Source: Candidatus Moraniibacteriota bacterium
Lineage (GTDB): Bacteria; Patescibacteriota; Minisyncoccia; Moranbacterales; GCA-2747515
Assembly: GCA_046116545.1 (NCBI GenBank)
Contig: CP175956.1
Span: 577,734 to 641,733, forward strand
Direction: 5' to 3'
Length of the DNA stretch: 64,000 nt
In this document: positions 9,671 to 64,000 of the stretch, in pieces
Numbering within the stretch: the first letter of the stretch is position 1
Layout: each line of letters opens with the position of its first letter
Position numbers and translations under genes: made by a program
Notes under the pieces: generated by a model
Database searches by the model: none
Told to the model about the DNA's origin: nothing
Seen by the model: the letters and a program-made list of their open reading frames with translations, nothing else

Positions 9671-9671
9671 C

Positions 9672-9830: not shown

Positions 9831-9877
9831 TATTATGACTGAATGATATATAAATAAATTATAAAAATATAGTATAT

Positions 9878-10660: not shown

Positions 10661-10668
10661 ATTTTTGA

Positions 10669-10697
10669 TTGACTTTTTATATGTTTTATATTAGAGT
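10669..10697 (+). promoter_or_regulatory. Promoter-module fragment homologous to the A-repeat promoter (TTGACT-17-TAGAGT)
   Basis: ttgattgactttttatatgttttatattagag aligns with ttgattgactttttgtatattttatgctaatat of A1/A3. Confidence 0.5.
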
Positions 10698-10702
10698 ATA
10701 GT

Positions 10703-10779
10703 GTCCATTAGAGGACAGCAACTAACTAGCGGAATGCTAGTTCTTTAACAAAACTGGCGGAATGCCAAAGGAGAAAGTC
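10703..10779 (+). promoter_or_regulatory. Structured 5-prime leader: three short hairpins, two with identical GGAAU pentaloops (ctagcGGAATgctag; tggcGGAATgcca), ending at the RBS
   Basis: gtgtcc-atta-gaggacagc, aactagc-ggaat-gctagtt and tggc-ggaat-gcca run directly into AAGGAGAAAGTC-ATG. Confidence 0.4.
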
Positions 10780-11949: not shown

Positions 11950-11962
11950 ATTAAACTATGTT

Positions 11963-12004
11963 AATACCACCATTCGATTTAATATCGAGTGGTGGTATTT
12001 TTTA
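11963..12004 (+). terminator. Rho-independent terminator (ataccacc ... ggtggtat + T6)
   Basis: 8-bp stem with a long loop, then TTTTTTATT. Confidence 0.55.
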
Positions 12005-12088
12005 TTGTAAAACAAAGACTTTTAGTGAAGAATTAACATCACAAAAAGTTCGAACGGTAGTACCTACTATAGATAGGATCGAACTAAG
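12005..12088 (+). repeat. Family-A repeat, short copy A5 (both ends present, internal hairpin deleted)
   Basis: tgtaaaacaaagacttttagtgaagaatt...aaaaGTTCGAACGgtagtacctactatagataGGATCGAACTaag. The two inverted termini lie only ~25 bp apart. Confidence 0.75.
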
Positions 12089-12178
12089 ATAGACAAAAGA
12101 TGTAGTTTGATATAGAATAAATAGTCAGTTCATTAAATAATTATTTTATTACAAATTCAATTAAAGGGGTATCGAATT

Positions 12179-12406
12179 ATGATTTCAGTTGGTAATATTG
12201 AAAGATTTATTGATAATCATCCAGAACTTAATCTCGATAAAGATAAGATTATGAGACAGGCTGATGAATTAGCTCGTCAAGAGGTCTTGTCTGGCGGAGT
12301 AGTTGGAGATTTACTTGGCAATTTGGACGCATTATTTTTTCGTGAATTTCATTTTGACATAGAGCATCTTAAGGTTGCTGCAAAAGATGTAATAAATATG
12401 GAGTAG
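12179..12406 (+). CDS. Hypothetical small protein (75 aa)
   Basis: ORF with RBS-like AAAGGGG upstream. No family recognised. Confidence 0.35.
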   Translation: MISVGNIERFIDNHPELNLDKDKIMRQADELARQEVLSGGVVGDLLGNLDALFFREFHFDIEHLKVAAKDVINME

Positions 12407-12426
12407 TTATATCTAATAAATTTGAA

Positions 12427-13227
12427 GTGAGGGAGATGAAAATGAGAGAATCACAACGATATTCTAAAAAGCTTATTATTATAATTACGGTTGTTATTAT
12501 TTGTGGAATTGTAAGCACTCTGTGGATGATGTTTGGCAAGGATAGTATATCTTTTTCTGAGCATGATGCACGTGAGCAAATTGCAAAACATATTCCAACA
12601 ACCAAGATTGATACAATTGTTGGTATGGAATATTCAATTACCATTGATCAGGTAAGTGTTGATTTTGTTGAGGGTGATCGAATTGGTATTGAAGCAAGTG
12701 GCATTGTTGATAGTAGTAAGGGGGGTGTTAATTTTTCTGTTGTAACTGTAGGTGTTCCAGATCTTAGAAATAATGCTTTTTATTTTAGACCTAACTCCTT
12801 TGAGTTTACTGAATTTGTGTTTTCAAAAAAGGCTCAAAAAAGCAGTCGTGTTCTAGGTATTGTGGCAGCTAATACTATTAAAAAGTATACTGGTGATCTT
12901 TTTAAGGGAACTGATATTAAGATTGATAAAAAGGCAATAACGGAAAAGATTCAGGCTAAGATTAAAATAATGACTCATAGTGCTATTGTGGGATATCTAA
13001 ATAAAAATCCAATCAAAAAACTTGAAACTGGCAAAGAGAAAATTATAGGTGCAGCTATCAAAAAGATTAGCGTAGATGGCGATAATATCACCATTCACTT
13101 TTCTTTTTGGAATTTAGCAAAATATGTTTTAGTGTTTATATTGGCTTTTATTGCAGCTATTGGACTTTTAGTTTCTGCTCCATGGTGGGCAGCTGACCTT
13201 GCATTTCTTGCGGCTATTTTAAGTTAA
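12427..13227 (+). CDS. Membrane-anchored hypothetical protein (N- and C-terminal TM helices)
   Basis: N-terminal helix LIIIITVVIICGIVSTLWMMF and C-terminal helix VLVFILAFIAAIGLLV. Confidence 0.45.
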   Translation: MREMKMRESQRYSKKLIIIITVVIICGIVSTLWMMFGKDSISFSEHDAREQIAKHIPTTKIDTIVGMEYSITIDQVSVDFVEGDRIGIEASGIVDSSKGGVNFSVVTVGVPDLRNNAFYFRPNSFEFTEFVFSKKAQKSSRVLGIVAANTIKKYTGDLFKGTDIKIDKKAITEKIQAKIKIMTHSAIVGYLNKNPIKKLETGKEKIIGAAIKKISVDGDNITIHFSFWNLAKYVLVFILAFIAAIGLLVSAPWWAADLAFLAAILS

Positions 13228-13328
13228 TCTCCTGAATATTACTGACTAAACAGGACTTGAATAAATTCAAGTCCTGTTTTACTTTTTATAACTAATAATA
13301 AATACTTTTAAATAGTTATTTTCATTAT

Positions 13329-13364
13329 AAAAAGTTTGAACGTTATTACCTACTCGGCGCTAGA
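13329..13364 (+). repeat. Family-A repeat fragment A6 (left end only)
   Basis: aaaaGTTTGAACGttattacctactcggcgc matches the first 35 bp of the A element. Confidence 0.6.
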
Positions 13365-38494: not shown

Positions 38495-41400
38495 ATGAAA
38501 AAAAATATTGTCAAGCTTTTGGGTGTATTTGTTTTTTTTGCGTACCTTGTATCAATGTCCACTACTACAACTTTTGCAGTAGATGAAACAACTATTGAAG
38601 AAATTATTCCAAATGAATTTCAAGGAGGTGGAATAGCGCAAGGATGGCAAGGGGATGATGATAATTGGGATTATGCACTTCCATTCACATTCAATTTTTA
38701 TGGAGTAGATTATACTAATATAAAAATAGGTTCAAATGGAGCTATTTGTCTGGATAATGCACAAAACTGTACATGGTATGCAGAAATAAATAGTAGTTGG
38801 ATGGGGCCAGTTATAACAGCTCTAGGTAAAGACCTTATAACGAATGATATATTTATAACAGAAAGTTCGGATAATGTTGTTATACGGTGGGCTGTAACAG
38901 AATATGGTACATCAAATCAAATAAACTTTGAAGTAGTATTGTATAGTGATGGAAATATAAAGTTTAATTATGGAAATTCTGATATAGCACTTTCAGGTGG
39001 CGCAGTAGTTGGAATTCTTAAAGGTGATGGCATAATATATACAGAATCAGTCTATCATCAAAATACAGAGTTTGATCAAGTGGATACATCAGCATGGGGT
39101 GAGTTTGGAATAGGTGTTGAGAGTTTTTTTCCAGCAGATAATGAAGCTGGTGTGTTTTTGGATACAGACTTAAAAATAACTTTTGATACTGAAATATATC
39201 AAGGAATAGGCAATATTGAAATAAAGAAAAAATCAGATAATTCTATTGTAGAAATGATAGATGTTACAGCAGGTCAAGTAACGGGCTTTGGAACAGTAGA
39301 TATTACAATTTCAACAAATATTGAATTACAAACATATACGCAATATTATGTAACAGTAGATGAAAATACATTTAAAGATATAGATGATGAAGCATATTTA
39401 GAAATAAGTGATAATACAACATGGAACTTTTCAACAGGGGACGGTTATATTATAAAAACAATTTCAGAGGGACGATGTTATGAAATTGGCTCTGCTGAAA
39501 CACAAAAGCCAACAAATACAGAATTATCATACTCAAATGATAATCAAGTGACTTGGACTTATGTGCCTGAAGATCAGGGTACTGGAGGGGACTGTAATAT
39601 TACGGATGTACGACTTAATGTTTTTGCAGATACACAAACAATTGGTGAAAACTTAGAAACCGAGTTTGTGGGAACACTTATAGATACACAAGTTACTAAT
39701 AATGATGATGGAGAAGTTGGTTTAGTATATAATAATGTGGGAACATATGTGTTTGGTAGCACAAACAGAGATGATGGGCAGAGTATTGTAGTAGATACAC
39801 AAAATAATGTATATATTGCAGGAGCCTTTAGTGACACGGTAGACTTCAATCAATCGGGTATCGGGTTACCAGACAACCATACTAGCACTGGTTATCAAGA
39901 TATTTTCATTACAAAATATAATGCAGATAGTTCATATGGTTATACTTATGCAATGGGTGGAACAAATAATGACGTTGGATATGACATCGCAACAGATTCT
40001 CAAGATAATGTTTATATAATTGGAAGCTTTCATTTGACAGTTGATTTTAATCAAACGGGTAGTGGATTGCCAGATATACACACAAGTAATAGTAGACGTG
40101 ATATTTTTATCACAAAAATAAATGCAGATGGTAGCTATGGCTACACGTATACATTTGGAGGACTTCCAGATACTTTTGGAAATAATAATTATGGGTATGC
40201 AATTGCAATAGATTCTCAGGACAATGTTTACGGTATGGGAAATTTTTCTAGAACAATAGACTTCAATCAAACAGGTAGTGGTTCAGTAGATAATCATGTT
40301 AGCAATGGTTATTATGACATATTTATCACAAAAATAAATACAGATGGATCTTATGGTCATACGTATACAATGGGAGGAGTAGGTTATGATTATGGACATG
40401 AGATTACGACGGATACACAAAATAATGTATATATTACAGGTGCTTTTAGTGGCACGGTAGATTTTAATCAAACTGGCAGTGGCTCACCAGATAGTCATAC
40501 GAGCAATGGTAGTAGAGACATATTTATAACAAAATATAACGCAGATGGCTCATATGGCTATACTTATACAATGGGGGATGTAACCTATAATGCTGGACGA
40601 GGTCTTGTGGTGGATACACAAAATAATGTATATATTACAGGAGAGTTTAGTGGCACAGTGGACTTTAATCAAACAGGTAGTGGGTTACCAGATAGTCATA
40701 CTAGTAATGGTATTTTAGACATATTTATTACAAAATATAACCCCGATGGCTCATATGGTTACACTTATACAATGGGTGGATTGGGTTATGATTATGGAAA
40801 TGGAGTTACTCTGGATATGCAGGACAACGTATATATTACAGGATCCTTTAATAACACAGTAGATTTTAATCAAACGAACGGTGGTAGTTCAGATGTGTAT
40901 GTGAGCAATGGCGCTTATGATATTTTTATTACAAAGATAAATGTAGATGGTTCTTATGGTTGGACTAATACATTTGGTGGAACAGATTCAGATTTTGGCC
41001 TTGGTGTGGCACTGGATGATTCCAATGATGTTCTTGTGACAGGGATTTTTAAAGGCACTGTAGAGTTTAATCAAACAGGTGCAGGATTGGCAGAATCATA
41101 TGTAAGTAAGGGTGATTATGATATTTTTATTACAAAATATAACGCAGATGGTTCATATGGAACATTTTTTTCAGATAGTTACAAGACAGTAGGAGATTAT
41201 CAAGTACAGATAGCACATAATGATTCTATGGCGTGGCAACAGTTAGAGATAATGAGCAATGATCCAATAGACACAAACTTGGAATATACAATATTAGATA
41301 ATACTTGTGCAAACACGCTCGTAGGGCCAATATCTGATACTATGATAGATTTATCGTCAATTGGAAATAGTGATGCGGGGTTATGTTTTCAGACAAATTT

Positions 41401-44400
41401 TACAACAATAGATACACAAGTAACTCCGCAAATAAATTCATGGACGGCAACATATGCAATAGAGAGAAATATTACAGACTTTAATTTTAATACAATTTCA
41501 CAAAGTACAATACAAAATTGTGATTGTTATGTGATAGGGTCAGCCGAAGCTGAACAGCCAGAAAATTCAATATTATATTTTTCAAAAGATGATGGATTTT
41601 CATGGGATTATATACCAGTAGACAACGGAGGAGGAATGGATTGTAATGTCACAAATGTAAAAGTGAAATACAATGATGATACTCGTGAAGTAGGCGAAGA
41701 CTTGGAAGGTGAGTTTACTGGAGTAATTACAGACACAGAAATCGTCAATGTTGATGGTGGAGAGATTGAAATAAAAAAAGGTGGAATGGGAACTTATTCT
41801 GTTGGTACTGGTGGTGAAGTGGGTTATGGTGTTGTAGTAGATGGTAACAATAATATTTATGTTACAGGAGAATTTGGAGATACTACGGATTTTAATCAAA
41901 CGGGGGTAGGTGAGTCAGATATACATACTAATAATGGAGCTTATGATATTTTCATTACAAAATATAATGCAGATGGTTCATATGACTATACATATACAAT
42001 AGGTAGTACTGGCGATGATACTGGATTAGATATTATTACAGATGATCAAAATAATGTATATATTACAGGACGGTTTGAGAATACTGTTGATTTCAATCAA
42101 ACGGGTTCTGGTAGTTCAGATGAACATACAGCCATTGGTAGCCTAGAAAATATTTTCATAACAAAATACAATGCCGATGGTTCATATGCATACACATACA
42201 CAATAGGTAGCACTGGATATGACTATGGAGAGGGTGTTGTAGTTGACAGTGTAGGTAATGTATATATGATAGGGTTTTTTGAAAATAGCGTTGAATTTAA
42301 TACAACTGGCTCAGGTGTATCAGATATACACACAAGTCATGGCTCTCGTGATATTTTCATAACAAAATACAATGCAGATGGTTCATATGACTATACTTAC
42401 ACAATGGGTGGTTCAAGTTATGATTATGGGTATGGCATAGCAGTGGATAGTTCGGATAATATATATATGACAGGCTCATTTAGTGGTACTGTTGACTTCA
42501 ACCAAACTGGTTCAGGTGCATCAGATACACATACCAATAATGGCTCTCGTGATATTTTCATAACAAAATACAATGCAGATGGTTCATATGACTATACTTA
42601 CACAATGGGTGGTTCAAGTTATGATGATGGTAAAGATATTATCATAGATAATTTTGGGAATGCATATATTACAGGATATTTTCGAAGTTCAACAGCAGAA
42701 TTTAATCAAACTGGTTCAGGTGCATCAGATATGCATACAACCAATGGATCGTATGATATTTTTATCACAAAAATAAATGCAGATAATGGCTATGGTTACA
42801 CATATACAATGGGGAGTTCTCAATCTGAACATGGGGAAGGTGTCACGGTAGATAATTTAGGTAATGTATATGTTACAGGATATTTTGGGGGAGATATGGA
42901 TTTCAATCAAACTGGATCAGGTGATCCAGATGTTCATGCAATTAGTGGAGGAGGTTATGATGTTTTTATAACAAAATACAATGCAGATGGTTCATATGGC
43001 TACACGCACACAATAGGTGATAACCAAACTGTTTTTGGATTTAGCATTACAACAGACAATTTAAATAACCTTTATACAACTGGATTATTTAATGCCACTC
43101 TTGATTTCAATCAAACTGGAACAGGTGAATCAGATATTCACACAGGCTATATGAATGCGACTATGTTTCTTACAAAAATTAATGCAGATGGAACCTACGG
43201 AACGTTGTATGAATATTACAAATCACCAGGAATCTACCAAACCAAAATCCCCTCAACAAACATAAAAGAATGGAAAGAATTAACAATAGATCAAAATACC
43301 CCAGATGACACAACAATCAAATACGAAATATTAGATCAATTATGTACAAATACGTTGATAAATGAAACAGAGAATACAACAATAGACCTATCAAGTATAA
43401 ATACAATCAATATAGAACTTTGTCTCGAAATAACCTTTGAAACAACAGATGTACAAGAAACTCCAATCTTAAACAGTTGGCAAGCAACCTACACAACAGA
43501 TCCAGAAACAGATGAAGAAGAAATAGATTTTCAGACAATGAGAAATCCAGAATGTGATTTAGTAATATTGCCTATTAATCCAGTAGATCCAATAATTCCA
43601 CCAGAAGAACCAGAAGAAGAAAAAGAATGCAAAACCGACAATATAAAAGAAATAACAAAAGATTCAGTAACTCTAAGAGTAGAAGTAGATGAAGAATACG
43701 CAGATGAGAAAATAAAATTCAAAGTAGAAGTAGAGAATCTATATACAAATGAAAAAGAAACAATAAAACTAACGGATAAACCATCTGATAGTGGAAGAGT
43801 AACTCTAGAGATAGATAACCTAGAAGAAGATACCCAATATAGGTTCAAAGTATCATATCAAGAAGATGATAGCTACGAATACTGTCCACATTCTAAAACA
43901 GCAACAACAGAAAAAACAACTCTAGGACCTACAAAAGAAATAGTAAATCCAGAATGTGGAGAATCAAGTAAAACATATACAGAAGATGAATCAGAATTCA
44001 CAGGAGACTTCTGTCAAACAGGAGAAGTATTAAATATACCAGAATTTCCAAATCAAGGAGAATCATCTTCATGGACATGTACAAATGATGATGAAGAAAT
44101 AACATGTAGCGCTAGTAGAGAAGAAAAAGAAATAGTAACTCCTCCAGTAGTACAAGGAGGAAGTGATCCTGAACCACCAGCACAAGAAGTAACAGATCCT
44201 CCTGTACAAGAACCAACAAAGGAACAACAAAAAGAAAAACAATATCAAGCAGCTGCAGTAGTAGGATTAACAACAGGAACACTAATAGCTCTAGCTTCAA
44301 CAACAATCCCTCTATTCACAACAATCCCAATGGCAGCAACAGATATATTCATAATGCCTTTCTTAGGAATATTAGCTAGAAGAAAAAATGAACAAAACTG

Positions 44401-45142
44401 GGGAACAGTGTTTGAACAAACAACAAAACAACCATTGCCTGGAGTAAAACTAGTTCTAACTGATATAGAGGGCTTTGAAATAGAAACAACATACTCAGAT
44501 CAACATGGAAGATTTGGATTCTTAACAACAAATGGAACATATCTGATACATCCAGAAAAACCAAAATATGAAGAAGACCTAACTCATAACCATGATTCAC
44601 TATACGGAGATGTATATACAGGAGAAGCATTAACAATAGAAGAAAACAAAGTTCTAGCAACAAATATTGCAATGAATGCCCTGAATATAAACTGGAATGA
44701 ATATGCAGATAAAAAAGTAAAAAGCTATACAGGAACTTTCTCAGCAATAAAGAAATGGAGCTTCATAATTCTTTTTTACGTAGGATTTATAGCTACAGCA
44801 GCAATAACTTACCTGTACCCATCAACTCTAAATTACATATTCCTATCTCTATATATGGCACTGTTCATTTATGATAACTTCATAAAACAAAAGAAATATG
44901 GAACAGTAACAAAACATGATAAAAACCCAGTACCTTTTGCAGTAGTATCACTCCATAACAAAGAAACAAATCAAAAAACAGGATTCGCTGTAACAGATGC
45001 AATAGGAAGATATTATCTTCTAGCAGAAAATGGAGATTACAATATGAAAGTAAAAGGACAACCAATATCAGGACAACCTTTTGAAAAACAAGGTAATATC
45101 AATGTTAGGAAAGGTCTTGTTAGGGAGGATATTAAAGTTTAA
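38495..45142 (+). CDS. Giant (2215 aa) cell-surface protein: two blocks of ~10 SBBP beta-propeller repeats inside a duplicated super-module, FN3-like domain, Pro/Glu-rich linker, 3 TM helices and 2 CarboxypepD_reg-like domains
   Basis: Signal peptide, then the repeat unit VDTQNNVYITG.FSGTVDFNQTGSG..D.HTSNG..DIFITKYNADGSYGYTYTMGG. C-terminal modules VKLVLTDIEGFEIETTYSDQHGRFGF and FAVVSLHNKETNQKTGFAVTDAIGRYY. Confidence 0.8.
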   Translation: MKKNIVKLLGVFVFFAYLVSMSTTTTFAVDETTIEEIIPNEFQGGGIAQGWQGDDDNWDYALPFTFNFYGVDYTNIKIGSNGAICLDNAQNCTWYAEINSSWMGPVITALGKDLITNDIFITESSDNVVIRWAVTEYGTSNQINFEVVLYSDGNIKFNYGNSDIALSGGAVVGILKGDGIIYTESVYHQNTEFDQVDTSAWGEFGIGVESFFPADNEAGVFLDTDLKITFDTEIYQGIGNIEIKKKSDNSIVEMIDVTAGQVTGFGTVDITISTNIELQTYTQYYVTVDENTFKDIDDEAYLEISDNTTWNFSTGDGYIIKTISEGRCYEIGSAETQKPTNTELSYSNDNQVTWTYVPEDQGTGGDCNITDVRLNVFADTQTIGENLETEFVGTLIDTQVTNNDDGEVGLVYNNVGTYVFGSTNRDDGQSIVVDTQNNVYIAGAFSDTVDFNQSGIGLPDNHTSTGYQDIFITKYNADSSYGYTYAMGGTNNDVGYDIATDSQDNVYIIGSFHLTVDFNQTGSGLPDIHTSNSRRDIFITKINADGSYGYTYTFGGLPDTFGNNNYGYAIAIDSQDNVYGMGNFSRTIDFNQTGSGSVDNHVSNGYYDIFITKINTDGSYGHTYTMGGVGYDYGHEITTDTQNNVYITGAFSGTVDFNQTGSGSPDSHTSNGSRDIFITKYNADGSYGYTYTMGDVTYNAGRGLVVDTQNNVYITGEFSGTVDFNQTGSGLPDSHTSNGILDIFITKYNPDGSYGYTYTMGGLGYDYGNGVTLDMQDNVYITGSFNNTVDFNQTNGGSSDVYVSNGAYDIFITKINVDGSYGWTNTFGGTDSDFGLGVALDDSNDVLVTGIFKGTVEFNQTGAGLAESYVSKGDYDIFITKYNADGSYGTFFSDSYKTVGDYQVQIAHNDSMAWQQLEIMSNDPIDTNLEYTILDNTCANTLVGPISDTMIDLSSIGNSDAGLCFQTNFTTIDTQVTPQINSWTATYAIERNITDFNFNTISQSTIQNCDCYVIGSAEAEQPENSILYFSKDDGFSWDYIPVDNGGGMDCNVTNVKVKYNDDTREVGEDLEGEFTGVITDTEIVNVDGGEIEIKKGGMGTYSVGTGGEVGYGVVVDGNNNIYVTGEFGDTTDFNQTGVGESDIHTNNGAYDIFITKYNADGSYDYTYTIGSTGDDTGLDIITDDQNNVYITGRFENTVDFNQTGSGSSDEHTAIGSLENIFITKYNADGSYAYTYTIGSTGYDYGEGVVVDSVGNVYMIGFFENSVEFNTTGSGVSDIHTSHGSRDIFITKYNADGSYDYTYTMGGSSYDYGYGIAVDSSDNIYMTGSFSGTVDFNQTGSGASDTHTNNGSRDIFITKYNADGSYDYTYTMGGSSYDDGKDIIIDNFGNAYITGYFRSSTAEFNQTGSGASDMHTTNGSYDIFITKINADNGYGYTYTMGSSQSEHGEGVTVDNLGNVYVTGYFGGDMDFNQTGSGDPDVHAISGGGYDVFITKYNADGSYGYTHTIGDNQTVFGFSITTDNLNNLYTTGLFNATLDFNQTGTGESDIHTGYMNATMFLTKINADGTYGTLYEYYKSPGIYQTKIPSTNIKEWKELTIDQNTPDDTTIKYEILDQLCTNTLINETENTTIDLSSINTINIELCLEITFETTDVQETPILNSWQATYTTDPETDEEEIDFQTMRNPECDLVILPINPVDPIIPPEEPEEEKECKTDNIKEITKDSVTLRVEVDEEYADEKIKFKVEVENLYTNEKETIKLTDKPSDSGRVTLEIDNLEEDTQYRFKVSYQEDDSYEYCPHSKTATTEKTTLGPTKEIVNPECGESSKTYTEDESEFTGDFCQTGEVLNIPEFPNQGESSSWTCTNDDEEITCSASREEKEIVTPPVVQGGSDPEPPAQEVTDPPVQEPTKEQQKEKQYQAAAVVGLTTGTLIALASTTIPLFTTIPMAATDIFIMPFLGILARRKNEQNWGTVFEQTTKQPLPGVKLVLTDIEGFEIETTYSDQHGRFGFLTTNGTYLIHPEKPKYEEDLTHNHDSLYGDVYTGEALTIEENKVLATNIAMNALNINWNEYADKKVKSYTGTFSAIKKWSFIILFYVGFIATAAITYLYPSTLNYIFLSLYMALFIYDNFIKQKKYGTVTKHDKNPVPFAVVSLHNKETNQKTGFAVTDAIGRYYLLAENGDYNMKVKGQPISGQPFEKQGNINVRKGLVREDIKV
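39470..43500 (+). repeat. Internal duplication of a ~2 kb super-module ([Cys module]-[~10 SBBP repeats of ~180 bp]-[~95-aa module]) within the giant surface-protein gene
   Basis: CYEIGSAETQKP.. / CYVIGSAEAEQP.. and YKTVGDYQVQI.. / YKSPGIYQTKI.. flank the two SBBP blocks (39780-41170 and 41810-43200). Confidence 0.8.
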
Positions 45143-57137: not shown

Positions 57138-57146
57138 ATTAAGGAC

Positions 57147-57190
57147 TAGAGCAATGAATCTATATAGATTTATTGCTCTTTATTTTTATT
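57147..57190 (+). terminator. Rho-independent terminator (tagagcaatgaatcta ... tagatttattgctct + T-run)
   Basis: 15-bp stem with one mismatch followed by TTATTTTTATT. Confidence 0.75.
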
Positions 57191-57217
57191 GACAGTAAAT
57201 ATAATTAGTTGTACATT
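57189..57217 (+). promoter_or_regulatory. Sigma70-like promoter TTGACA-17nt-TACATT upstream of the RT leader
   Basis: -35 at 57189-57194 and -10 at 57212-57217. Confidence 0.5.
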
Positions 57218-57224
57218 ATTGAGC

Positions 57225-57460
57225 AGGAGCCGATTTGTTGGGTTTGTTGATTTTTTACGCGACGCCCATAGAGGCTGTCTGTTATCGGATAGCTAAATAA
57301 GTGTAAGGATGATTCCAAGTATGGCAAAGACTATGCTGACTTAGTTTCTTGCAGAGTAATAAATACGGTGTGTTATTGACAATGGTGAATATCCAAAGCA
57401 CATAACTACCGTGCTAGGGCTCTATGGGAGAAAGAGAATTTATCTTTCTCCCATTTTTTT
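57225..57460 (+). ncRNA. Candidate retron non-coding RNA (msr-msd) / structured leader upstream of the RT
   Basis: ~235-nt untranslated region between promoter and RT RBS. Inverted 9-mers GCCCATAGAG (57264-57273) / CTCTATGGG (57420-57428). Perfect 10-bp hairpin gggagaaaga-gaatttat-ctttctccc (57426-57452). Confidence 0.3.
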
Positions 57461-57497
57461 AAAATAAAGGTACTTTAACATAAAAGGAGATTACAAA

Positions 57498-58529
57498 ATG
57501 ATAAGAGATGATGCGGTTGATATTTTATCAAATTTAATTGATGGGCAATATACATCAGTTCAAATTCATGATGTATTAGATAGTTGGGTGTGTTATCGTC
57601 AATTTTATCAAAGAAAGAAAAGTGGTGCTAAACGATTGTTGAGTGCACCAGATGATTCTTTGAAAAAATTGCAATATTACATTTTACGTTACATTTTATA
57701 TAGATTTCCTGTGCATAAAAATTTGTATGGATTTGTGCCAGGTGTCACCATGAAAGATGGCGTGTATACACATTTACTCAATCAGCACACAAGAGATGGT
57801 GGTATGCCGCGGTGGATATTGCATATTGATTTGAAAAACTGTTTTCCATCTGTGAAATCAGAAATTTTACAAAACATGTTTGAAGATATGTCTGCAGGCT
57901 TACTGTATGAATATGGCGTGCACAATACAGATGTATTTCTAGAGTTTTGTCGTATTATGGTAGAGCTTACTACATACAAAGGTAGGTTGACTCAAGGAGC
58001 ACCAACATCACCTTATTTGACGAATCTTGTAATTTCATGGTCGGGTATTGCAGATAATTTAGATGCTTATTGCAGAGAAAATAAATTACATTTTTCTATA
58101 TACGCAGATGATATCGTAGTATCTTCAGTGAATCATGAACAAATATCAAAACGTCAAATAATTAAATGTGTAGAAGCAAATAAAATATTTAGGGTTAATC
58201 CCAAAAAAACGCATTTAAACAATGTCAGACATAGATCACATTGTATTACAGGAATAATAGTTCACACACCTATAGTTGGTGTTGATAAGTGTGCCAGACT
58301 GACTCTTTCACAAAAAAAGCAGAAGTTTTATCGTGGTAGAATTTGGTATGCTACACGTTTTTTGCAACAAGGATATGAACCAAGTATACAGAATGATGGT
58401 ATTTCTGTAGAGCAGGTTAGGGGTTATATTGCGTGGATACGTCATGTCTGTGGTGGACATATCCCATCAAGCCTACAAAAACCAATTAGTTACTTTGAAA
58501 AAATCACAGCAACTTTAAATGACATCTGA
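57498..58529 (+). CDS. Retron-type reverse transcriptase (343 aa)
   Basis: RT motifs RLLSAPDDSLKKLQ (1), ILHIDLKNCFPSV (2), LTQGAPTSPYLTNLV (4), FSIYADDIVVSS (5, YADD), plus the retron-typical ITGIIVH (VTG) region. No maturase/X or endonuclease domain. Confidence 0.75.
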   Translation: MIRDDAVDILSNLIDGQYTSVQIHDVLDSWVCYRQFYQRKKSGAKRLLSAPDDSLKKLQYYILRYILYRFPVHKNLYGFVPGVTMKDGVYTHLLNQHTRDGGMPRWILHIDLKNCFPSVKSEILQNMFEDMSAGLLYEYGVHNTDVFLEFCRIMVELTTYKGRLTQGAPTSPYLTNLVISWSGIADNLDAYCRENKLHFSIYADDIVVSSVNHEQISKRQIIKCVEANKIFRVNPKKTHLNNVRHRSHCITGIIVHTPIVGVDKCARLTLSQKKQKFYRGRIWYATRFLQQGYEPSIQNDGISVEQVRGYIAWIRHVCGGHIPSSLQKPISYFEKITATLNDI

Positions 58530-58554
58530 ATCTCAGATGTCATTTTTGATTTTT
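58519..58554 (+). terminator. Rho-independent terminator spanning the RT stop codon (atgacatctga-atc-tcagatgtcat + TTTTGATTTTT)
   Basis: Perfect 11-bp stem. Its left arm supplies the spurious ORF-track ATG 58519 for recQ. Confidence 0.75.
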
Positions 58555-58584
58555 AAACAGATAGATTGTATTATAGTAATTACT

Positions 58585-60723
58585 ATGCAAAAACTTTTGA
58601 AAAAACATTTTGGACATGAAGATTTTCGTAGCGTACAAAAAGATGTGATTGATCATTTTGTAGCAGGAAATGATGTGGCAGTTATTATGCCTACTGGTGG
58701 TGGTAAGTCACTTTGTTTTCAGCTACCTGCTGTTATGCGTGACGGAGTTACTATTGTTATATCTCCACTTATTTCACTTATGAAAGATCAGGTGGATGCA
58801 CTAAATGCAAATGGTATAGCAGCGACGATGCTTAATTCATCTGTATCACATGAAGAGCTAGACCAGAGAATGCAACTAGCACAAATGGGAGGATATAAAC
58901 TCATATATCTCGCACCAGAGAGACTTTCAAATGATTATATACAAAACTGGCTAGGCAAGATAAACATCACAGCGCTTGCAGTTGATGAGGCTCATTGTAT
59001 TTCACAATGGGGACATGATTTTCGACCAGACTATAGAAATCTAAAGCTATTTCGCCAGAGATTTCCACAAGTCCCTATTATAGCTTTAACAGCGAGTGCA
59101 ACTGAGCGTGTGAGAGAAGATATTGTCAAAGAGTTAGCACTTACAAATCATAAGGTTTTTGTATCTGGATTTTATCGTGAAAACTTAAATATTACAGTAA
59201 TGCCAAAGTCTGGTGCAAATGACAAAATTTTGCATTTTGTAGAAAAATATAAAAATGAATCAGCAATTATATATTGTTTTTCTCGCAAAGAAACAGAAGA
59301 ACTTGCAGAAGTATTAAGAGAGGAAGGCATAAATGCAGGAGCTTATCATGCAGGGCTTACACAAGAAAAAAGAACTGAAGTGCAAGATGCATTTGTGCGA
59401 GATGATATAAATGTAGTGGTGGCTACAATTGCTTTTGGTATGGGGATAGATAAGCCTGATGTACGATTGGTGATGCATAAGACGTTTCCAAAAACTATCG
59501 AAGGATACTATCAAGAGATTGGGAGAGCTGGTCGTGATGGTTTACCAAGTGAATGCGTGATGCTCTTTTCTGCTGGAGATAAGATGAAATTAGATTATTT
59601 TCTCAGACAGATGGATGAGGCTAGGCGACAAAGTGAAGAAAAGAAGATTAGAGAGGTGATAGATTATGCAGAATCTAGAATTTGTCGTTGGCAATGGCTT
59701 ACTAGTTATTTTGGACAAGGTGGACTCCCAGCTTGTGGTACTTGTGATGTATGTACATCAAATGACGAAACAGAAGATGTGACAGAACTAGTACAAAAAA
59801 TTCTATCCGCAGTAGTAAGAACAGGGAATACTTTTGGCAAAGGTCATGTTGTAAAAGTGCTAAGGGGTTCACGAGATAAAAACGTACTTAGTAGGGGGCA
59901 TGAAGAGTTAACTGTGTGGGGAATTGCAAAAGAATATTCCACAGCAGAACTCATGGAGGTAATGACACATCTAGTAGCTCGAGGATTGATGGTACGGAAT
60001 ACTGGAGAATATGAAACATACAGAGTATCACAAGTAGGTGCAGATTTTTTGAATAATAGAGAATCAATAGAATTACCAAAGATAAAGAAAGAATATAAAT
60101 ATATTAGTTCAAATAGTCAAAAGCAAGAACTTGATTATAACAAGGAAATATTTGAAGCGCTTAGGGAATTAAGAAAAGAAATTGCAGATGATGTAGGTGT
60201 ACCAGCATTTGTGATTTTTGGGGATGTTTCACTGCAGGAGATGGCATATTATTTACCAACATCAAGAATTGCATTTTCAAATATATCAGGAGTAGGAGCT
60301 CAAAAATTGGAAAAATATTCAGAAACATTTACAGAATTTATAAGTGAACTAAAACAAGAAAAAGGACTAGAAAGCAAAGAACATAAAAAAAATAGAAAAC
60401 CAAAAAAATCAAAAGGAAATACATCCTCAGCAAAGCAACTACGATTGAATAGAACAAAAGAAATGCTGGAAGATAAATTATCAATGGAAGAAATGTCTGA
60501 AGAATTACAATTAGCACAAAGAACTATTATAAATTATATAGAAGAAATAGCAGAAAAAAATGATGTAGATGTAGAATATTTACTACCAAACAAAAAAGTA
60601 CAAAAAGAAATTAAAGAAGCATTCAAAAAACATGGCAATGATGCGCTTAGACCAATATTTGACCATTGTAATGAAAAATATAGTTATGATGAGATAAAGT
60701 TGGTTCAAATTGCAGATTTGTAA
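58585..60723 (+). CDS. recQ: ATP-dependent DNA helicase RecQ (helicase core, Zn-binding, RQC, HRDC, C-terminal HTH-like extension)
   Basis: MQKLLKKHFGHEDFRSVQ N-terminus, Walker A PTGGGKSLCFQ, DEAH VDEAHCISQWGHDFRPDY, Zn-finger CRWQW...CGTCDVC and HRDC FGDVSLQEMAYYLP. Start moved to ATG 58585. Confidence 0.85.
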   Translation: MQKLLKKHFGHEDFRSVQKDVIDHFVAGNDVAVIMPTGGGKSLCFQLPAVMRDGVTIVISPLISLMKDQVDALNANGIAATMLNSSVSHEELDQRMQLAQMGGYKLIYLAPERLSNDYIQNWLGKINITALAVDEAHCISQWGHDFRPDYRNLKLFRQRFPQVPIIALTASATERVREDIVKELALTNHKVFVSGFYRENLNITVMPKSGANDKILHFVEKYKNESAIIYCFSRKETEELAEVLREEGINAGAYHAGLTQEKRTEVQDAFVRDDINVVVATIAFGMGIDKPDVRLVMHKTFPKTIEGYYQEIGRAGRDGLPSECVMLFSAGDKMKLDYFLRQMDEARRQSEEKKIREVIDYAESRICRWQWLTSYFGQGGLPACGTCDVCTSNDETEDVTELVQKILSAVVRTGNTFGKGHVVKVLRGSRDKNVLSRGHEELTVWGIAKEYSTAELMEVMTHLVARGLMVRNTGEYETYRVSQVGADFLNNRESIELPKIKKEYKYISSNSQKQELDYNKEIFEALRELRKEIADDVGVPAFVIFGDVSLQEMAYYLPTSRIAFSNISGVGAQKLEKYSETFTEFISELKQEKGLESKEHKKNRKPKKSKGNTSSAKQLRLNRTKEMLEDKLSMEEMSEELQLAQRTIINYIEEIAEKNDVDVEYLLPNKKVQKEIKEAFKKHGNDALRPIFDHCNEKYSYDEIKLVQIADL

Positions 60724-60725
60724 TA

Positions 60726-60760
60726 GGTTGGCCCTATGGGAGGAAGTTTGAACTTTTTTA
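60726..60760 (+). repeat. Family-B short repeat, copy B1 (GGTTGGCCCTATGGGAGGAAGTTTGAAC)
   Basis: One of 4 copies of TTGGCCCTATGGGAKGARGTTCGAAC in 3.1 kb, all in the same orientation. Confidence 0.8.
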
Positions 60761-60828
60761 TGTAATGAATAGGATATTATGGCAAATTTTGATATAATTG
60801 GGGCATATAAATAATAACTTAATTATAT

Positions 60829-61173
60829 ATGAAACTTGATTCAGCTGTTTTTTATTCAAATAATCTTAATGTCACAATTCCTTTTTATAGAGATGTTTTA
60901 GGTTTGGATGTTAATTATATTCAAGAAAATAGATTTGCATCTTTTAATTTTGAGAATGGAAAAATTGGAATTAAGCAGAAAAAAGAAGATAGAGAAATTC
61001 CAGGACATCAAACAGTTTTTGTAGAAGTAGATAATATAGAAGAGGTATATAAAAAATTTCAAGAAAGAGGTATCATTTTTTTGAAAAAACTTACTAGGGA
61101 AGATTGGGCTATCAACTTTAGTTTGTTAGATCCAGACAAAAACAAAATTCAATTTATTTCAAATCAAATATAA
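60829..61173 (+). CDS. VOC/glyoxalase-bleomycin-resistance family protein
   Basis: FYRDVLGLDV and the paired betaalphabetabetabeta layout. 114 aa. Confidence 0.6.
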   Translation: MKLDSAVFYSNNLNVTIPFYRDVLGLDVNYIQENRFASFNFENGKIGIKQKKEDREIPGHQTVFVEVDNIEEVYKKFQERGIIFLKKLTREDWAINFSLLDPDKNKIQFISNQI

Positions 61174-61176
61174 AAT

Positions 61177-61206
61177 CAAAACCACCTTGCAAAGAGGTGG
61201 TTTTTG
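61177..61206 (+). terminator. Rho-independent terminator (aaaccacctc-tttgcaaa-gaggtggttttt)
   Basis: 9-bp stem + TTTTT. Confidence 0.8.
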
Positions 61207-61214
61207 TAAATAAT

Positions 61215-61250
61215 CAGTTAGTCCTATGGGATGAGGTTCGAACGGTTTTA
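61215..61250 (+). repeat. Family-B short repeat, copy B2 (TTAGTCCTATGGGATGAGGTTCGAACGG)
   Basis: See B1. Confidence 0.8.
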
Positions 61251-61288
61251 TTGTAATAAATATACAATTTATTTTTTTAGTATGAAAA

Positions 61289-61320
61289 AGCGATAGCTGA
61301 CTATTATGTCAGCTATCGCT
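61289..61320 (-). terminator. Minus-strand terminator for gene 61353..62483 (agcgatagctgaca-ta-tgtcagctatcgct, T-run on minus strand)
   Basis: 14-bp perfect inverted repeat. On the minus strand it is followed by TTTTTCATACTAAAAAAA. Confidence 0.7.
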
Positions 61321-61352
61321 TGGGGGTTCATTTTTTTGCTTAAGTTCTTACT

Positions 61353-62483
61353 TTAAGCAAAAATCTCTCTTCGTGCAGAATCAAAAATACCAAATTCTTC
61401 AAGTAATGCTATCTTCAGATGAGATGGAGCATGCTCAAATATAACATCTTCTTCAGTTAGGGCATCAGGCAAAACTTGAAGCATTAAACCTGTATATCCT
61501 TCAGCAACTTCTGCATCGTCTGATTTTGACAATTTTAAGATGTATTCAAGGTGGTTTCCTATTTGTGTAGGATTGTACTCTTGCAATACCTTCAATACCA
61601 ATTGCGCAGAAACATGTTTAGTCTGCTTGAGTTCGTGGTTATAACAAGTCGTCTCTTCATCCTCTAACTTTTCAATAGATAGTAGGTAGTTCAGATTTGA
61701 TTCCAAATCTCTTGTGTGTATCTCCATCAGGAGTGTCTTAATTCTTTTTTCATTGGCATCATCTGAAGCTCCTCCGATAAGATAACACTCAAAAAGATAC
61801 TTAATATGATCAGCCAAGTTCTCTTTCGGGAAGACATCTGACATTAGCACTTGTAAAACTAACCTTATAGAAGTCCTCTGTGCTATTGTGTCATATTCAT
61901 TTTTGCGAGCAACCAATTCATCAAACTGCGCAATAATATACCCTGAGGGTACTTTATTTATCAATTTCACAGTTATAGCTTGATGCTCACGTTGTTCACC
62001 ATCAAGCCATTGACAAGTAATAAGGTCCTGTAAGATATCACCAAGTTCCTCCGGAGAGAAATCAGCAACAGCCTTCAAGTAAGCTTTACCTAAGTGAGAC
62101 TCAAAATATTGATGCTCCCCAATATCATATCTCCAATACTTTGTAAGCAATGTTAAATCATCCTTAGTAAACATTTTGGCTGGTATTTTTTGAACCCACC
62201 AAAACAATTTATTTGCAAGTAAGTCAGGTAGCGCGTAGTATAGCTCTTCTCCAGAGACGTAGCCATCCAGTAATATTTTTGATAATTTGTTAACAGAAGG
62301 GTCTTCAGATTTCATACCACCTATAAGTGTCTTGATACATTCGATGTTGTTAACCTCAAATTTTAAAGATAACTTATTTTCTGGTGTCAGCGTTTCCAAA
62401 ATATGACTAACAACCATTGCGCCTTTTTCACCTTCTGCATTTTTTGCAAATAACTTTTTGACAATACTCATTTCACCCTCCAT
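61353..62483 (-). CDS. Hypothetical all-alpha (HEAT/ARM-like?) protein, 376 aa; visibly more GC-rich than its surroundings
   Basis: Long ORF on the minus strand between B2 and B3. No motif recognised. Confidence 0.45.
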   Translation of the reverse strand: MEGEMSIVKKLFAKNAEGEKGAMVVSHILETLTPENKLSLKFEVNNIECIKTLIGGMKSEDPSVNKLSKILLDGYVSGEELYYALPDLLANKLFWWVQKIPAKMFTKDDLTLLTKYWRYDIGEHQYFESHLGKAYLKAVADFSPEELGDILQDLITCQWLDGEQREHQAITVKLINKVPSGYIIAQFDELVARKNEYDTIAQRTSIRLVLQVLMSDVFPKENLADHIKYLFECYLIGGASDDANEKRIKTLLMEIHTRDLESNLNYLLSIEKLEDEETTCYNHELKQTKHVSAQLVLKVLQEYNPTQIGNHLEYILKLSKSDDAEVAEGYTGLMLQVLPDALTEEDVIFEHAPSHLKIALLEEFGIFDSARREIFA

Positions 62484-62561
62484 GAAGTTTTGTTATTCTT
62501 CCATTTAGTGGTGGAAGAAATTTGTTTTTTTATGAGACAGCTTTTGTTGCCTATTTTTAAA

Positions 62562-62587
62562 AGAACTATTCAATTATGAATAGTTCT
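62562..62587. promoter_or_regulatory. Candidate operator: perfect 10-bp inverted repeat AGAACTATTC-aattat-GAATAGTTCT, ~80 bp upstream of the minus-strand gene start
   Basis: Perfect dyad with 6-bp spacer in the promoter region of gene 61353..62483. Confidence 0.4.
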
Positions 62588-62716
62588 TTAGGTTATAACA
62601 GGAACTGGTTTGTGTCAATTCAAGGTTCAGGAATCATAATTTCTGAAAGCATATTATATCTGGTAGATTTATTTGAGACTACCGGGTTTTTAAATTTTAA
62701 AAACACAAAAAATCGA

Positions 62717-62750
62717 ATTGGCCCTATGGGATGAGGTTCGAACACTTTTA
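62717..62750 (+). repeat. Family-B short repeat, copy B3 (TTGGCCCTATGGGATGAGGTTCGAACAC)
   Basis: See B1. Confidence 0.8.
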
Positions 62751-62934
62751 AATTCAGTTTTGAAGTAGAGAATAAGTAGTAAAGGTTGTTAACAAAGGTT
62801 TCATCAAAAGATTTGGATTAGAATTTAAGTCATATGAGTTGACAAGTTGATGAATTTGTGACATAGTTAGATGTTGATTAAAATCAACTATTATGTGTAA
62901 TTTATACATGATAAAATTAGGAATTCTTTAATAA

Positions 62935-63720
62935 TTGGGAGATATTATGAAAAAGACATTGTTAAATGTATTAACTTTGTGTTTGTGTGGTTTGTTGTTG
63001 GCTGGATGTTCTGACGATTCTGTTGATTCTGATACCATTGGTTATCAGAGACCGCCAACTAAACAATTGGTACAATTCTTGGATGACATGGATCAATGGA
63101 TTGAGAATCAACCTGAAGACATTTCTTCAGAACAGTTCTTAGTGGAGGTTTACAGAATTTGGCCTGATATCGACCAGGAAATTTTGCAAAACTTGCGTGC
63201 CGAAAAGGTGATTGCTGAGGGCGAGTTACCTCGCATAGAATATCATTTTTTCAAAGATGGTAAATGCGATATGCAAGATGAAGACGGCGCTTATGTGCCC
63301 GTGCGTTTAGTGAGAGCAAATAAATTTGCTTTGAGACTTATACGTGAGGGTGTTGAAGATTCTTGGATTAGTTTGGCATGTCTGAATGGTATGCTAAATC
63401 TTGATAGAGAATCGGATGTAAATGCTATTGCTAGAATGGAGTTTGAGATTGGACCTGGTAAAGGACTATCTTACTACACTCAGGACAATTTACTCAGCAT
63501 TAGAATAGCTGAAGTATTTGGTCTTTGGTTATTTGAAGGCAAGGGCTACAATAAGCGGATTACGCCAGAAAAAGCTAGAGACATCGTAACTGCTGTTAAG
63601 CAAGTAACGGTTAAAGTGAAAACTGGCTGGAAATTTCGTATCAACGGCATAGATGATATGCAAATTTTTCTTCCACAGGAAGATTGGATGAGTCCTGAGG
63701 AATTTAAACAAAAACATTAA
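62935..63720 (+). CDS. Lipoprotein, hypothetical (lipobox LAGCSD); relatively GC-rich
   Basis: MKKTLLNVLTLCLCGLLLAGCSDDS. Confidence 0.5.
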   Translation: MGDIMKKTLLNVLTLCLCGLLLAGCSDDSVDSDTIGYQRPPTKQLVQFLDDMDQWIENQPEDISSEQFLVEVYRIWPDIDQEILQNLRAEKVIAEGELPRIEYHFFKDGKCDMQDEDGAYVPVRLVRANKFALRLIREGVEDSWISLACLNGMLNLDRESDVNAIARMEFEIGPGKGLSYYTQDNLLSIRIAEVFGLWLFEGKGYNKRITPEKARDIVTAVKQVTVKVKTGWKFRINGIDDMQIFLPQEDWMSPEEFKQKH

Positions 63721-63740
63721 TTGCAGGAAATCTGCGAAAA

Positions 63741-63771
63741 GCAATTCACTCAAATGAGAGAATTGCTTTTT
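63741..63771 (+). terminator. Rho-independent terminator (gcaattc ... gaattgc + T5)
   Basis: Stem + TTTTT. Confidence 0.7.
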
Positions 63772-63788
63772 AATTTGTCAAAATATAG

Positions 63789-63823
63789 AGTTGGCCCTAT
63801 GGGAGGAAGTTCGAACACTTCTA
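63789..63823 (+). repeat. Family-B short repeat, copy B4 (GTTGGCCCTATGGGAGGAAGTTCGAACAC)
   Basis: See B1. Confidence 0.8.
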
Positions 63824-63908
63824 TTGCAATAGTAATGGATATTTGATAGTATTTAGTATCGTTTATTTAACATATTGATAAGTCATCATTCAAAATAAGG
63901 AGTAGAGA

Positions 63909-64000
63909 ATGAAAAATATTAACCCAAAGGTGTTTTGGAGTGCTTTTCTATTCATAGGCTCCATTATCGGTGGACTAGTATTTGTTATGGTCGGTGTAGT
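63909..64000 (+). CDS. 3-prime-truncated CDS: membrane protein N-terminus
   Basis: RBS AAGGAG 7 nt upstream. MKNINPKVFWSAFLFIGSIIGGLVFVMVGV. Confidence 0.35.
   Translation, partial: MKNINPKVFWSAFLFIGSIIGGLVFVMVGV

Follow-up and report, generated by a model that had tools for sequence, protein, structure and literature searches.

A tRNA-mimicking junction repeat in an array downstream of recQ

The 64,000-nucleotide stretch of Candidatus Moraniibacteriota DNA analysed here (contig CP175956.1, positions 577,734 to 641,733; hereafter the window) contains, directly after recQ, an array of small gene cassettes separated by copies of a 27-nt repeat. This repeat is a recombination junction; it is neither an integron attC site, nor a regulatory site, nor an RNA. 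In our favoured explanation, which we consider reasonably probable, each repeat consists of the attP-type half-site arm and the crossover core of a large serine recombinase (LSR) system, and the arrays are small cargo modules integrated one after another. Bacteria of the candidate phyla radiation (CPR) have tiny genomes with few recognised mobile elements, and their acquisition of accessory genes is poorly understood; a searchable 27-bp site (GTTCGAAC-N13-core) at the edges of acquired genes would allow their flexible gene pool to be mapped from metagenomes. Our searches also indicate a large family of serine integrases, specific for tRNA-Asn and apparently uncharacterised, whose attB and attP sites can be read from natural sites, which would be useful for genome engineering. 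Should the small units prove to be independently mobile, the arrays would amount to an integron-like cassette system with a serine instead of a tyrosine recombinase.

A search with a degenerate 26-mer identified four + strand matches (60728-60753, 61218-61243, 62718-62743 and 63791-63816; 0-2 mismatches) and none in shuffled controls (n = 100), and a repeat finder listed the same four-copy family (D14); the four repeats are not due to chance. The original prediction had described four copies in one orientation, and these are real, with the correction that its starts were off by 1-3 nt and that the conserved unit is 27 nt long. Read on the minus strand, the unit consists of an octamer, 13 nt and a core hexamer. 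The four copies and the gene to their left are as follows.

58519-60723, + strand: recQ, passing the TIGR01389 cut-off
60727-60753: junction site copy 1, minus-strand reading GTTCAAAC TTCCTCCCATAGG GCCAAC
61217-61243: junction site copy 2, minus-strand reading GTTCGAAC CTCATCCCATAGG ACTAAC
62717-62743: junction site copy 3, minus-strand reading GTTCGAAC CTCATCCCATAGG GCCAAT
63790-63816: junction site copy 4, minus-strand reading GTTCGAAC TTCCTCCCATAGG GCCAAC

On its left the array has a fixed border, the conserved chromosomal gene recQ, whose product is 100% identical to a protein from a Candidatus Moraniibacteriota MAG, which places the window in a CPR bacterium. Copy 1 begins 3 nt past the recQ stop codon, with no terminator there; terminator hairpins lie ahead of copies 2-4 only, at gaps of ~12, 30 and 19 nt, so that the claim of a terminator 5-15 bp before every repeat holds for the presence of a terminator at three copies and not for copy 1 or for the distances. 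Copy 2 sits between the convergent terminators of a VOC gene and a gene for a 376-aa protein. Nor does the array end with a third cassette at 63823, as had been proposed: locus L041, which belongs to the same organism, in an assembly identical to the window, and runs past the window end (offset 52946), contains two further copies (11572-11605 and 12490-12523, corresponding to window 64518 and 65436), giving six sites and at least five units for the full array over the window and L041. The units within the window are listed below.

60754-61216, + strand: cassette 1, with an extended -10-like TGATATAAT, the VOC/glyoxalase gene (60829-61173) and a terminator hairpin (61178-61204)
61244-62716, minus strand: cassette 2, with the gene for the 376-aa protein (61353-62483) and its own terminator (61279-61311, minus strand)
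62744-63789, + strand: cassette 3, with a 'type b' spacer ACTTTTAAATTCAGTTTTGAAGTAGAG (62744-62770), a promoter-like TTGACA at 62839, a lipoprotein gene (62947-63720) and a terminator hairpin (63737-63770)
63817-64000, + strand: start of cassette 4, with a 'type a' spacer ACTTCTATTGCAATAG and, from 63909 onward, 30 codons at the 5' end of the gene for a 184-aa membrane protein

Our gene calls agree with the three genes that had been predicted. The product of 60829-61173 is a Glyoxalase/VOC protein by Pfam. The minus-strand product of 61353-62483 (376 aa, or 372 aa from a later start) had no Pfam, NCBIfam or PADLOC match and a single homologue among 5.8 billion proteins (58% identity), encoded on a motif-less 1.7-kb contig. 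The 62947-63720 protein has an N-terminus, MKKTLLNVLTLCLCGLLLAGCSDD, that includes an LAGC lipobox, and the gene for the 184-aa membrane protein of cassette 4 is complete in L041 (10963-11517). When the window cassette proteins were searched against all fetched loci no homologues were identified. The window cassette genes are compositionally foreign: the genes after the VOC gene have GC contents at third codon positions (GC3) of 0.308, 0.337, 0.389, 0.41, 0.30 and 0.29, against a mean of 0.214 for the window genes (sd 0.041), and that of the VOC gene is low relative to the same mean (0.139). The higher GC that had been noted for the two distal genes is clearest in this measure (0.31 and 0.34 vs 0.214). 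A hairpin, aagaactattcaat(t/c)(a/g)tgaatagttctt, found upstream of the 376-aa gene (window 62555-62590) is kept upstream of its sole homologue (L058 ~330-365) and is possibly a regulatory element of that gene.

The gene order LepA-MreB-MreC-PBP2...RecQ upstream of the array is common to the window and to two related loci (L048 and L049, RecQ ~70% identical). Different genes follow recQ in these two and in a third relative (L047), and neither the motif nor the window cassette genes were found there, as the original prediction would have it for an acquired array; relatives at ~70% identity are too distant to yield joints. A VOC-family gene that follows recQ in L048 was considered as an orthologue of the window VOC gene and rejected as unrelated. 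The comparison also bears on the idea that a ~30-100 bp junction element is a non-autonomous insertion, akin to a miniature inverted-repeat transposable element (MITE), that entered an existing gene order after terminators. The element is indeed short, repeated, intergenic and same-oriented within each cluster, and conserved spacer types accompany it; however, the recQ-syntenic relatives are without the genes as well as without the element, and gene content beyond the element itself differs on one side of shared joints. The junction elements show neither terminal inverted repeats nor target-site duplications, and their copies are tightly clustered rather than dispersed as palindromic REP-type units would be, with one further copy from the probable metagenome-assembled genome (MAG) of the window. 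We regard a MITE-like origin as the least probable of the alternatives considered here, and highly improbable.

Distribution among CPR bacteria and anchoring at tRNA genes

An exact CCTATGGGANGANGTTYGAAC search with one genome per species identified 13 loci. Eleven were in MAGs named as Moraniibacteriota, Paceibacteria or Saccharibacteria, one was labelled Micavibrio with Moraniibacteriota-like flanks, and one match, in Bacteroidales, seems to be fortuitous or to be coding sequence. Another 27 loci came from a metagenome scan. The site bounds arrays in at least three CPR phyla, and its copies are clustered on one strand, e.g., three in 4.5 kb (L011), three in 1 kb (L040) and eight in ~6 kb (L005 and L031). 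The probable window MAG, matched to the window by phylum and GC, gave a single locus in this genome scan (L009), which does not overlap the window. The motif is therefore not a generic element after every terminator, a possibility that had been raised along with the original prediction.

In all 11 distinct motif loci with a nearby tRNA the array lies directly 3' of a specific tRNA gene and is co-oriented with it, the repeat as written being on the opposite strand to the anchoring tRNA (11/11 loci). The anchor is tRNA-Gln(CTG) in Moraniibacteriota (L003, L007, L010 and L025) and tRNA-Asn(GTT) in L002, L004, L014, L018/L027, L034, L039 and L031. The tRNA beside the arrays is always intact. The Saccharibacteria-type tRNA-Asn of L031 (1878-2200) carries a group I intron within its anticodon loop (Rfam RF00028, 72 bits against a gathering score of 50), and ARAGORN misses the gene because of this interruption.

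The region 3' of tRNA-Asn is itself conserved in Saccharibacteria and Paceibacteria (L014 9759-9900; L001 3300-3830, minus strand; L002 1-340, minus strand; L004 4680-4800). It contains a long hairpin, an inverted pseudo tRNA 3' half (TGGCTCCG...CAGGATTCGAA) and a conserved stretch of ~60 nt (GGGCAGGATTCGAAGAGATGGAGTTTATCGCACGAGCA...). Rfam gave no match to a tmRNA, RNase P-like RNA or leader in L001/L002, and a short open reading frame (ORF) there, MEFIARA..., is not conserved in length. The region could be a small RNA or the host-side half of a recombination site.

Architecture of the site

The minus-strand consensus of the site is GTTCGAAC followed by 13 nt (yTCmTCCCATAGG) and GCCAAC, and the octamer GTTCGAAC is a perfect palindrome. 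The octamer and 13-mer of Saccharibacteria and Paceibacteria are nearly identical to those of Moraniibacteriota. The hexamer in these two groups is CGGAGC, and junctions with another 13-mer subtype (nTCCTnCACCCAG) are interspersed in their arrays. The 13-nt spacing between octamer and hexamer was invariant in 27 Moraniibacteriota-type and ~28 Saccharibacteria-type unique junctions, and the hexamer varies with the target tRNA (GCCAAC with tRNA-Gln, CGGAGC with tRNA-Asn).

The Moraniibacteriota tRNA-Gln 3' end and its flank read GGTTCGAATCCTACCAGCCCAACaatttttgacaaa and their junction counterpart reads cGTTCGAACCTCATCCCATAGGGCCAACaaattttgacaaa; the tRNA terminus ...GGTTCGAATCCTACCAGCCCAAC is followed by aatttttgacaaa, and the junction GTTCGAACCTCATCCCATAGGGCCAAC by aaattttgacaaa. 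The two have in common the T-loop block (GTTCGAA), the last 5-6 nt of the acceptor and ~15 nt of 3' flank. The stretch between the shared blocks is unlike a T-stem and acceptor and is 5 nt longer in the repeat than in the tRNA, a net +5 nt from T-loop block to core that recurred in 5/5 alignments of tRNA with junction (two tRNA species, five loci). The repeat thus imitates the 3' half of tRNA-Gln from the T-loop to the acceptor end. It is not a copy of the 3' end of its target, and a truly displaced tRNA 3' end was seen at none of the joints. In LSR attachment sites the motif bound by the zinc-ribbon domain lies 5 bp closer to the centre in attB than in attP (Rutherford et al. 2013, PMC3783163), and the offset of the GTTCGAA block between the tRNA (attB-type) and the repeat (attP-type) equals this published 5-bp rule.

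In folds of all four window junctions the motif was unpaired save for a 3-bp CCC/GGG stem, and the hairpins were separate terminators; the site lies outside them, between terminator and promoter. No Rfam match covered the motif, either in the window at gathering score or in the region at E <= 10. We thus agree with the earlier view that these are not integron attC sites and that no intI is present in the window, finding neither an attC-type hairpin nor a GTTRRRY core, and no Phage_integrase-type match among ~45 window ORFs. Hammerhead or other ribozymes, a sigma-54 promoter, a LexA/Cheo box, a dif/Xer site, a DNA uptake sequence and a split or permuted tRNA/tmRNA were dropped by sequence inspection alone, their conserved positions, copy number or clustering being a misfit.

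These features also bear on whether the motif might be a regulatory DNA element (such as an operator at which a dimeric factor binds GTTCGAAC) or a signal for tRNA-like processing of RNA, carried within a portable promoter module. The perfect palindrome of the octamer would suit such a factor, the Moraniibacteriota motif is followed at a fairly fixed distance by a TTGACA promoter (type b spacer), and every L005 motif is just upstream of TTGACA. However, window copy 2 has a convergent terminator on either side and no gene to control, the hexamer changes with the target tRNA, and the orientation of the motif relative to genes is opposite in Moraniibacteriota and Saccharibacteria while that relative to the tRNA is constant. 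Synteny breaks at the motif, and the site is downstream of terminators, hence little transcribed, with no fold and no Rfam match. We consider a regulatory or RNA role very improbable, and the original reading of the repeats as cassette junctions rather than gene-linked regulatory sites is supported by arrays in several phyla, recurring cassettes, breaks at the repeat and foreign composition.

Large serine recombinase islands that end in the same site

The link to a recombinase came from L034, in which a 537-aa ORF with Resolvase, Recombinase and Zn_ribbon_recom domains is convergent to an adjoining intact tRNA-Asn. By its domain matches this ORF is assigned as an LSR. About 8.9 kb further on, L034 has GTTCGAAC GTCCTCCACCCAG CGGAGC, followed by sequence 98.9% identical to the flank that follows the tRNA in L014. 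The relevant sequences, with the hexamer set apart, are as follows.

Empty site (L014): ...CCTGCCGC CGGAGC CAgcgac
Left joint (L034): ...CCTGCCGT CGGAGC AAgatag
Right joint (L034): ...CACCCAG CGGAGC CAgcgac

The L034 joints set against the L014 empty site therefore place the crossover in the hexamer CGGAGC and make the octamer and 13-mer the element-side arm, a placement given by this one comparison. The last junction of an array is followed by native tRNA-Asn flank, beginning at the hexamer. We delimited three further LSR islands of 5.5-7.3 kb with the same end architecture, making four with that of L034; their far ends are listed below.

L050 island far end: GTTCGAAC TTCCTTCACCAAA CGGAGC
L052 island far end: GTCCTAAC TTCGTCTAGTAGA CGGAGC
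L053 island far end: TTTCTAAC TTCCTCTATTAGG CGGAGC

The 13-mer of the L053 island matches that of window copies 1 and 4 (TTCCTCCCATAGG) at 10/13 positions. Of 8000 candidates scored against the L034 LSR, more than 4000 were relatives at E <= 1e-20, and several carry a Patescibacteria label. In 5/5 homologue loci looked up the 3' end of the LSR gene overlaps the convergent tRNA-Asn. The LSR is the sole recombinase that we saw at such sites, and a presumed cognate LSR gene is present in Saccharibacteria/Paceibacteria-type loci (L034, L050-L055). The LSR ORFs cross the left joint into the tRNA gene (L034 78-1691; L050 10001-11593; also L052, L053 and L055), and the C-terminus of the L034 protein, ...LLRRQDSNLRPID, is a typical translation of a tRNA T-arm. 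As the ORF runs into tRNA-Asn, its last codons and stop would come from host DNA and would change on excision.

Cassettes as exchangeable units

Comparisons between loci showed that homology between related loci stops exactly at the repeat. The clearest case is a unit shared by L005 (2384-2719) and L016 (3300-2970), with 78% identity over a span that runs from one repeat across a 78-aa gene to the next. Similarity does not extend past either end of this span, the unit has unrelated neighbours in the two loci, and the GC content of the loci is 0.47 vs 0.37. A 211-aa gene is in the first unit after tRNA-Asn in L018 and in the last of several units in L002; L014, L015 and L034 have one unit in common and diverge straight after CGGAGCAA; a 196-aa gene of Moraniibacteriota has differing neighbours in L007, L033 and L040; and a 78-aa gene is common to L012 and L040. 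Most Moraniibacteriota units seem self-contained, consisting of the octamer, a conserved spacer, a gene and a terminator, and then the next site. The spacer after the octamer is of two types, GGTTTTATTGCAATAAA, or GGTTTTAAATTCAGTTTTGGAGTAGAATTCAA followed by TTGACA.

Many Moraniibacteriota cassettes with unrelated genes have a ~32-nt spacer with a 6-bp stem (AAATTC AGTTTTGGAGTA GAATTC) between the octamer and the TTGACA promoter (window 62744-62775; L041 11606-11640 and 12524-12555; also L006, L010, L011, L013 and L022), which may represent either a promoter module or an accessory binding site. The joint that closes the L007 array at its far end (6280-6304), on the 196-aa cassette, is an odd one, GTTCGAAC CTGCGCCCCCTGC CCGCAG; in L033 the same cassette has a standard joint. 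This odd joint resembles the 3' portion of another tRNA-like sequence, which suggests that some exchanges may take place at the octamer.

The recurring units can be set against a reading in which they are the decayed far ends of successive recombinase-bearing islands, the recombinase and most of the cargo having been deleted and the attR-type joint left. Full-size LSR islands of 5.5-8.9 kb with the same attR architecture do exist, cassettes resemble one another on the P-arm side (type a and b spacers) and vary on the opposite side, in the manner of random deletion end-points, and no unusual behaviour of the recombinase is required. However, the units are tidy (0.3-1.5 kb, an intact ORF with a promoter-like site and a terminator, and no truncated genes), one single-gene unit is found, complete with its two joints, in two genomes (L005/L016), and eight units in ~6 kb (L005 and L031) would require many independent clean deletions. 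We judge such decay rather unlikely, if the most serious of the competing explanations.

Proposed mechanism and points that weigh against it

In the favoured explanation, serial integration by an LSR, an enzyme of the tRNA-Asn family, or a tRNA-Gln-specific relative, would bind the octamer through its zinc-ribbon domain and the sequence beside the hexamer through its recombinase domain, with strand exchange inside the hexamer. The tRNA gene would supply the attB-type half-site and the repeat the attP-type half-site. Cargo modules (promoter, one gene, terminator) would integrate successively, each integration putting new DNA between the tRNA-side arm and the earlier insert, and older inserts would retain the P-arm and core at their far ends; the repeats would therefore be on the same strand whatever the orientation of the cargo gene. 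Since none is encoded in the window, the recombinase would act in trans from elsewhere in the genome. For the window, this has an LSR rather than another recombinase acting at the sites, with crossover within the hexamer in this lineage as well, and the recQ 3' end would presumably be a secondary target. No tRNA was found in the window or in the 8 kb beyond, and copy 1, next to recQ, would therefore mark the array end distal to the expected tRNA. Both the enzyme and the anchor, whether a tRNA-Gln or a pseudo-site, would lie outside the sequence read. Single cassettes would also have to move on their own, and the LSR to tolerate a hybrid tRNA-side site for repeated insertion.

Several observations weigh against this explanation. 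The window array has no adjoining tRNA: ARAGORN found neither tRNA nor tmRNA in the window, and no tRNA within 8 kb past the last copy on the expected side (L041). Pfam scans of ~45 window ORFs identified no XerD-like or serine recombinase, so that the recombinase that the original prediction proposed to look for is not encoded among them, and none was found in the 9.7 kb beyond the window (L041) or in any Moraniibacteriota locus fetched. Canonical phage LSRs carry out attP x attB recombination only, and repeated insertion at one tRNA therefore needs a tolerant enzyme or an attB-like right half-site. The sequence after the core is poorly conserved across junctions, leaving one recognisable half-site; cross-phylum conservation of a TTGACA-like right half-site had looked promising and proved weak in the full tables. 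Six assemblies of the window's species have an identical cassette order, with no turnover visible at this depth. The motif and the type-I arm had 0 matches in 2.9 million viral contigs, where the LSR profile found just two distant relatives. Lastly, the same cassette in L007 and L033 differs in both 13-mer and hexamer, as if the break were at the octamer.

This last switch of partner sequence at the octamer is what would be expected if the arrays belonged to an integron-like system of a tyrosine recombinase or other non-LSR enzyme, with GTTCGAAC as the crossover and the tRNA-like part as a binding arm. T-loops are the classical crossover regions of tyrosine integrases, so that a T-loop crossover would be typical of an integrase targeting tRNA genes, and the logic of the arrays resembles that of attI with attC. 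However, jackhmmer detected no XerD-like ORF among 1256 ORFs in 540 kb of array loci (the XerD query was an approximate one, and Pfam was run on selected ORFs), the tRNAs adjoining the arrays are always intact with no genuine displaced tRNA 3' end at the joints, and the native tRNA flank after the last joints starts at the hexamer and not at the octamer. With neither an attC-type hairpin nor a GTTRRRY core either, we consider a tyrosine system very improbable.

A bolder form of the LSR explanation is that the arrays represent an undescribed gene-capture platform of CPR bacteria, integron-like but with serine-recombinase chemistry, in which a trans-acting LSR stacks self-contained single-gene cassettes, each with its own 27-bp attP-type half-site that mimics a tRNA 3' half, at tRNA-Gln, tRNA-Asn or secondary sites such as the recQ 3' end, and in which the near-identical arm across Moraniibacteriota, Saccharibacteria and Paceibacteria reflects cross-phylum cassette traffic. 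We offer this only tentatively and regard it as somewhat doubtful.

Comparison with known systems

The sites agree with LSR attachment sites (PMC3783163) in having an outer motif, here GTTCGAA, whose distance from the core is greater by exactly 5 bp in the element-side than in the host-side half-site, and in a half-site of ~25 bp. The islands, too, have the LSR gene at the tRNA-proximal end and close in the same site. They differ in that one half-site is conserved while the far side of the core is variable, and in that many tandem sites occur without a recombinase between them; canonical LSRs would not insert repeatedly at attL, and the enzyme of the window lineage would be a putative one.

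Composite islands of the staphylococcal cassette chromosome (SCC) at rlmH/orfX are moved by the large serine recombinases CcrAB and CcrC. They likewise comprise tandem cassettes at one target, separated by direct repeats akin to the 3' terminus of the gene targeted, and some cassettes are without a recombinase gene, the enzyme acting in trans. However, the SCC target is a protein-coding gene and here it is a tRNA gene, SCC elements are tens of kb with many genes whereas the units here have 1-2 genes, and instead of simply copying the target end the present repeats are attP-type mimics with +5 nt.

Tandem islands at tmRNA or tRNA genes have also been described in the ssrA islands of Dehalococcoides (McMurdie et al. 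2011, PMC3146451) and the tycheposons of Prochlorococcus (Hackl et al., bioRxiv 10.1101/2020.12.28.424599). As in our arrays, these islands are reported to have repeats related to the gene 3' end at the joints and a serine recombinase in part of the systems; in contrast, their repeats are described as copies of the tDNA end and the islands as kb-scale, often with their own integrase, and CPR bacteria are not among the reported hosts.

With integrons, the arrays share mostly single-gene cassettes in one orientation, bounded by sites beside a fixed anchor, as well as cassettes common to unrelated genomes. Unlike in integrons, we found no IntI or other tyrosine recombinase, no folded attC hairpin and no GTTRRRY core, each cassette seems to have its own promoter and terminator, and the anchor is a tRNA gene. 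A full-text literature search identified nothing on such arrays in CPR bacteria, or on tRNA-Asn specificity of this LSR family in them. The arrays follow the logic of islands that accrete in tandem at a tDNA or at the 3' end of a gene, and there is a real chance that this here takes the form of a distinct serine-recombinase cassette platform.

Family A array, retron-type reverse transcriptase and other window features

A second array in the window, which we call family A, contains six junction elements.

507-13358, + strand: family A array, with elements at ~507-736, 3066-3220, 7398-7627, 9666-9895, 12008-12072 and 13294-13358, each having GTTCGAACGTCATTACCTACTCGG

The first four elements (A1-A4) are bipartite, with GTTCGAACGTCATTACCTACTCGG on the + strand, a terminator hairpin, an inverted arm CCACTATGAyAGGATCGAAC and a TTGAC-type promoter. 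The family A elements separate genes for two helicase/type IV restriction-like proteins, a MerR + HMA/DsbD + P-type ATPase group, an inositol monophosphatase and proteins of no assigned function, and the array is oriented opposite to the recQ array. The similarity that had been noticed between the two repeat families is real, consisting of the shared AAAAAGTTCGAACGTCAT and the second arm CCACTATGAyAGGATCGAAC.

Upstream of recQ, at 57138-58529, is a gene for a retron-type reverse transcriptase (RT) whose best PADLOC matches are RT_II-A/III-A and whose match to the NCBIfam retron St85 model is below cut-off; it overlaps the recQ start codon by 11 nt, and the recQ genes of L048 and L049 have no adjoining RT. 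The 360 nt upstream of the RT gene fold far more stably than shuffled sequences (z = -5.3) and end in a strong hairpin with a U-run, and by analogy this region resembles a retron msr/msd RNA. It had been suggested that this RT might act on the repeats, and we found nothing linking it to them. A 12-nt resemblance (CTCTATGGGAGAAAG) in the RNA upstream of the RT was treated as chance (nhmmer E ~2). Elsewhere in the window, a 2215-aa ORF (38495-45142) contains at least 13 tandem repeats of 201 nt (67 aa) with 60-87% identity.

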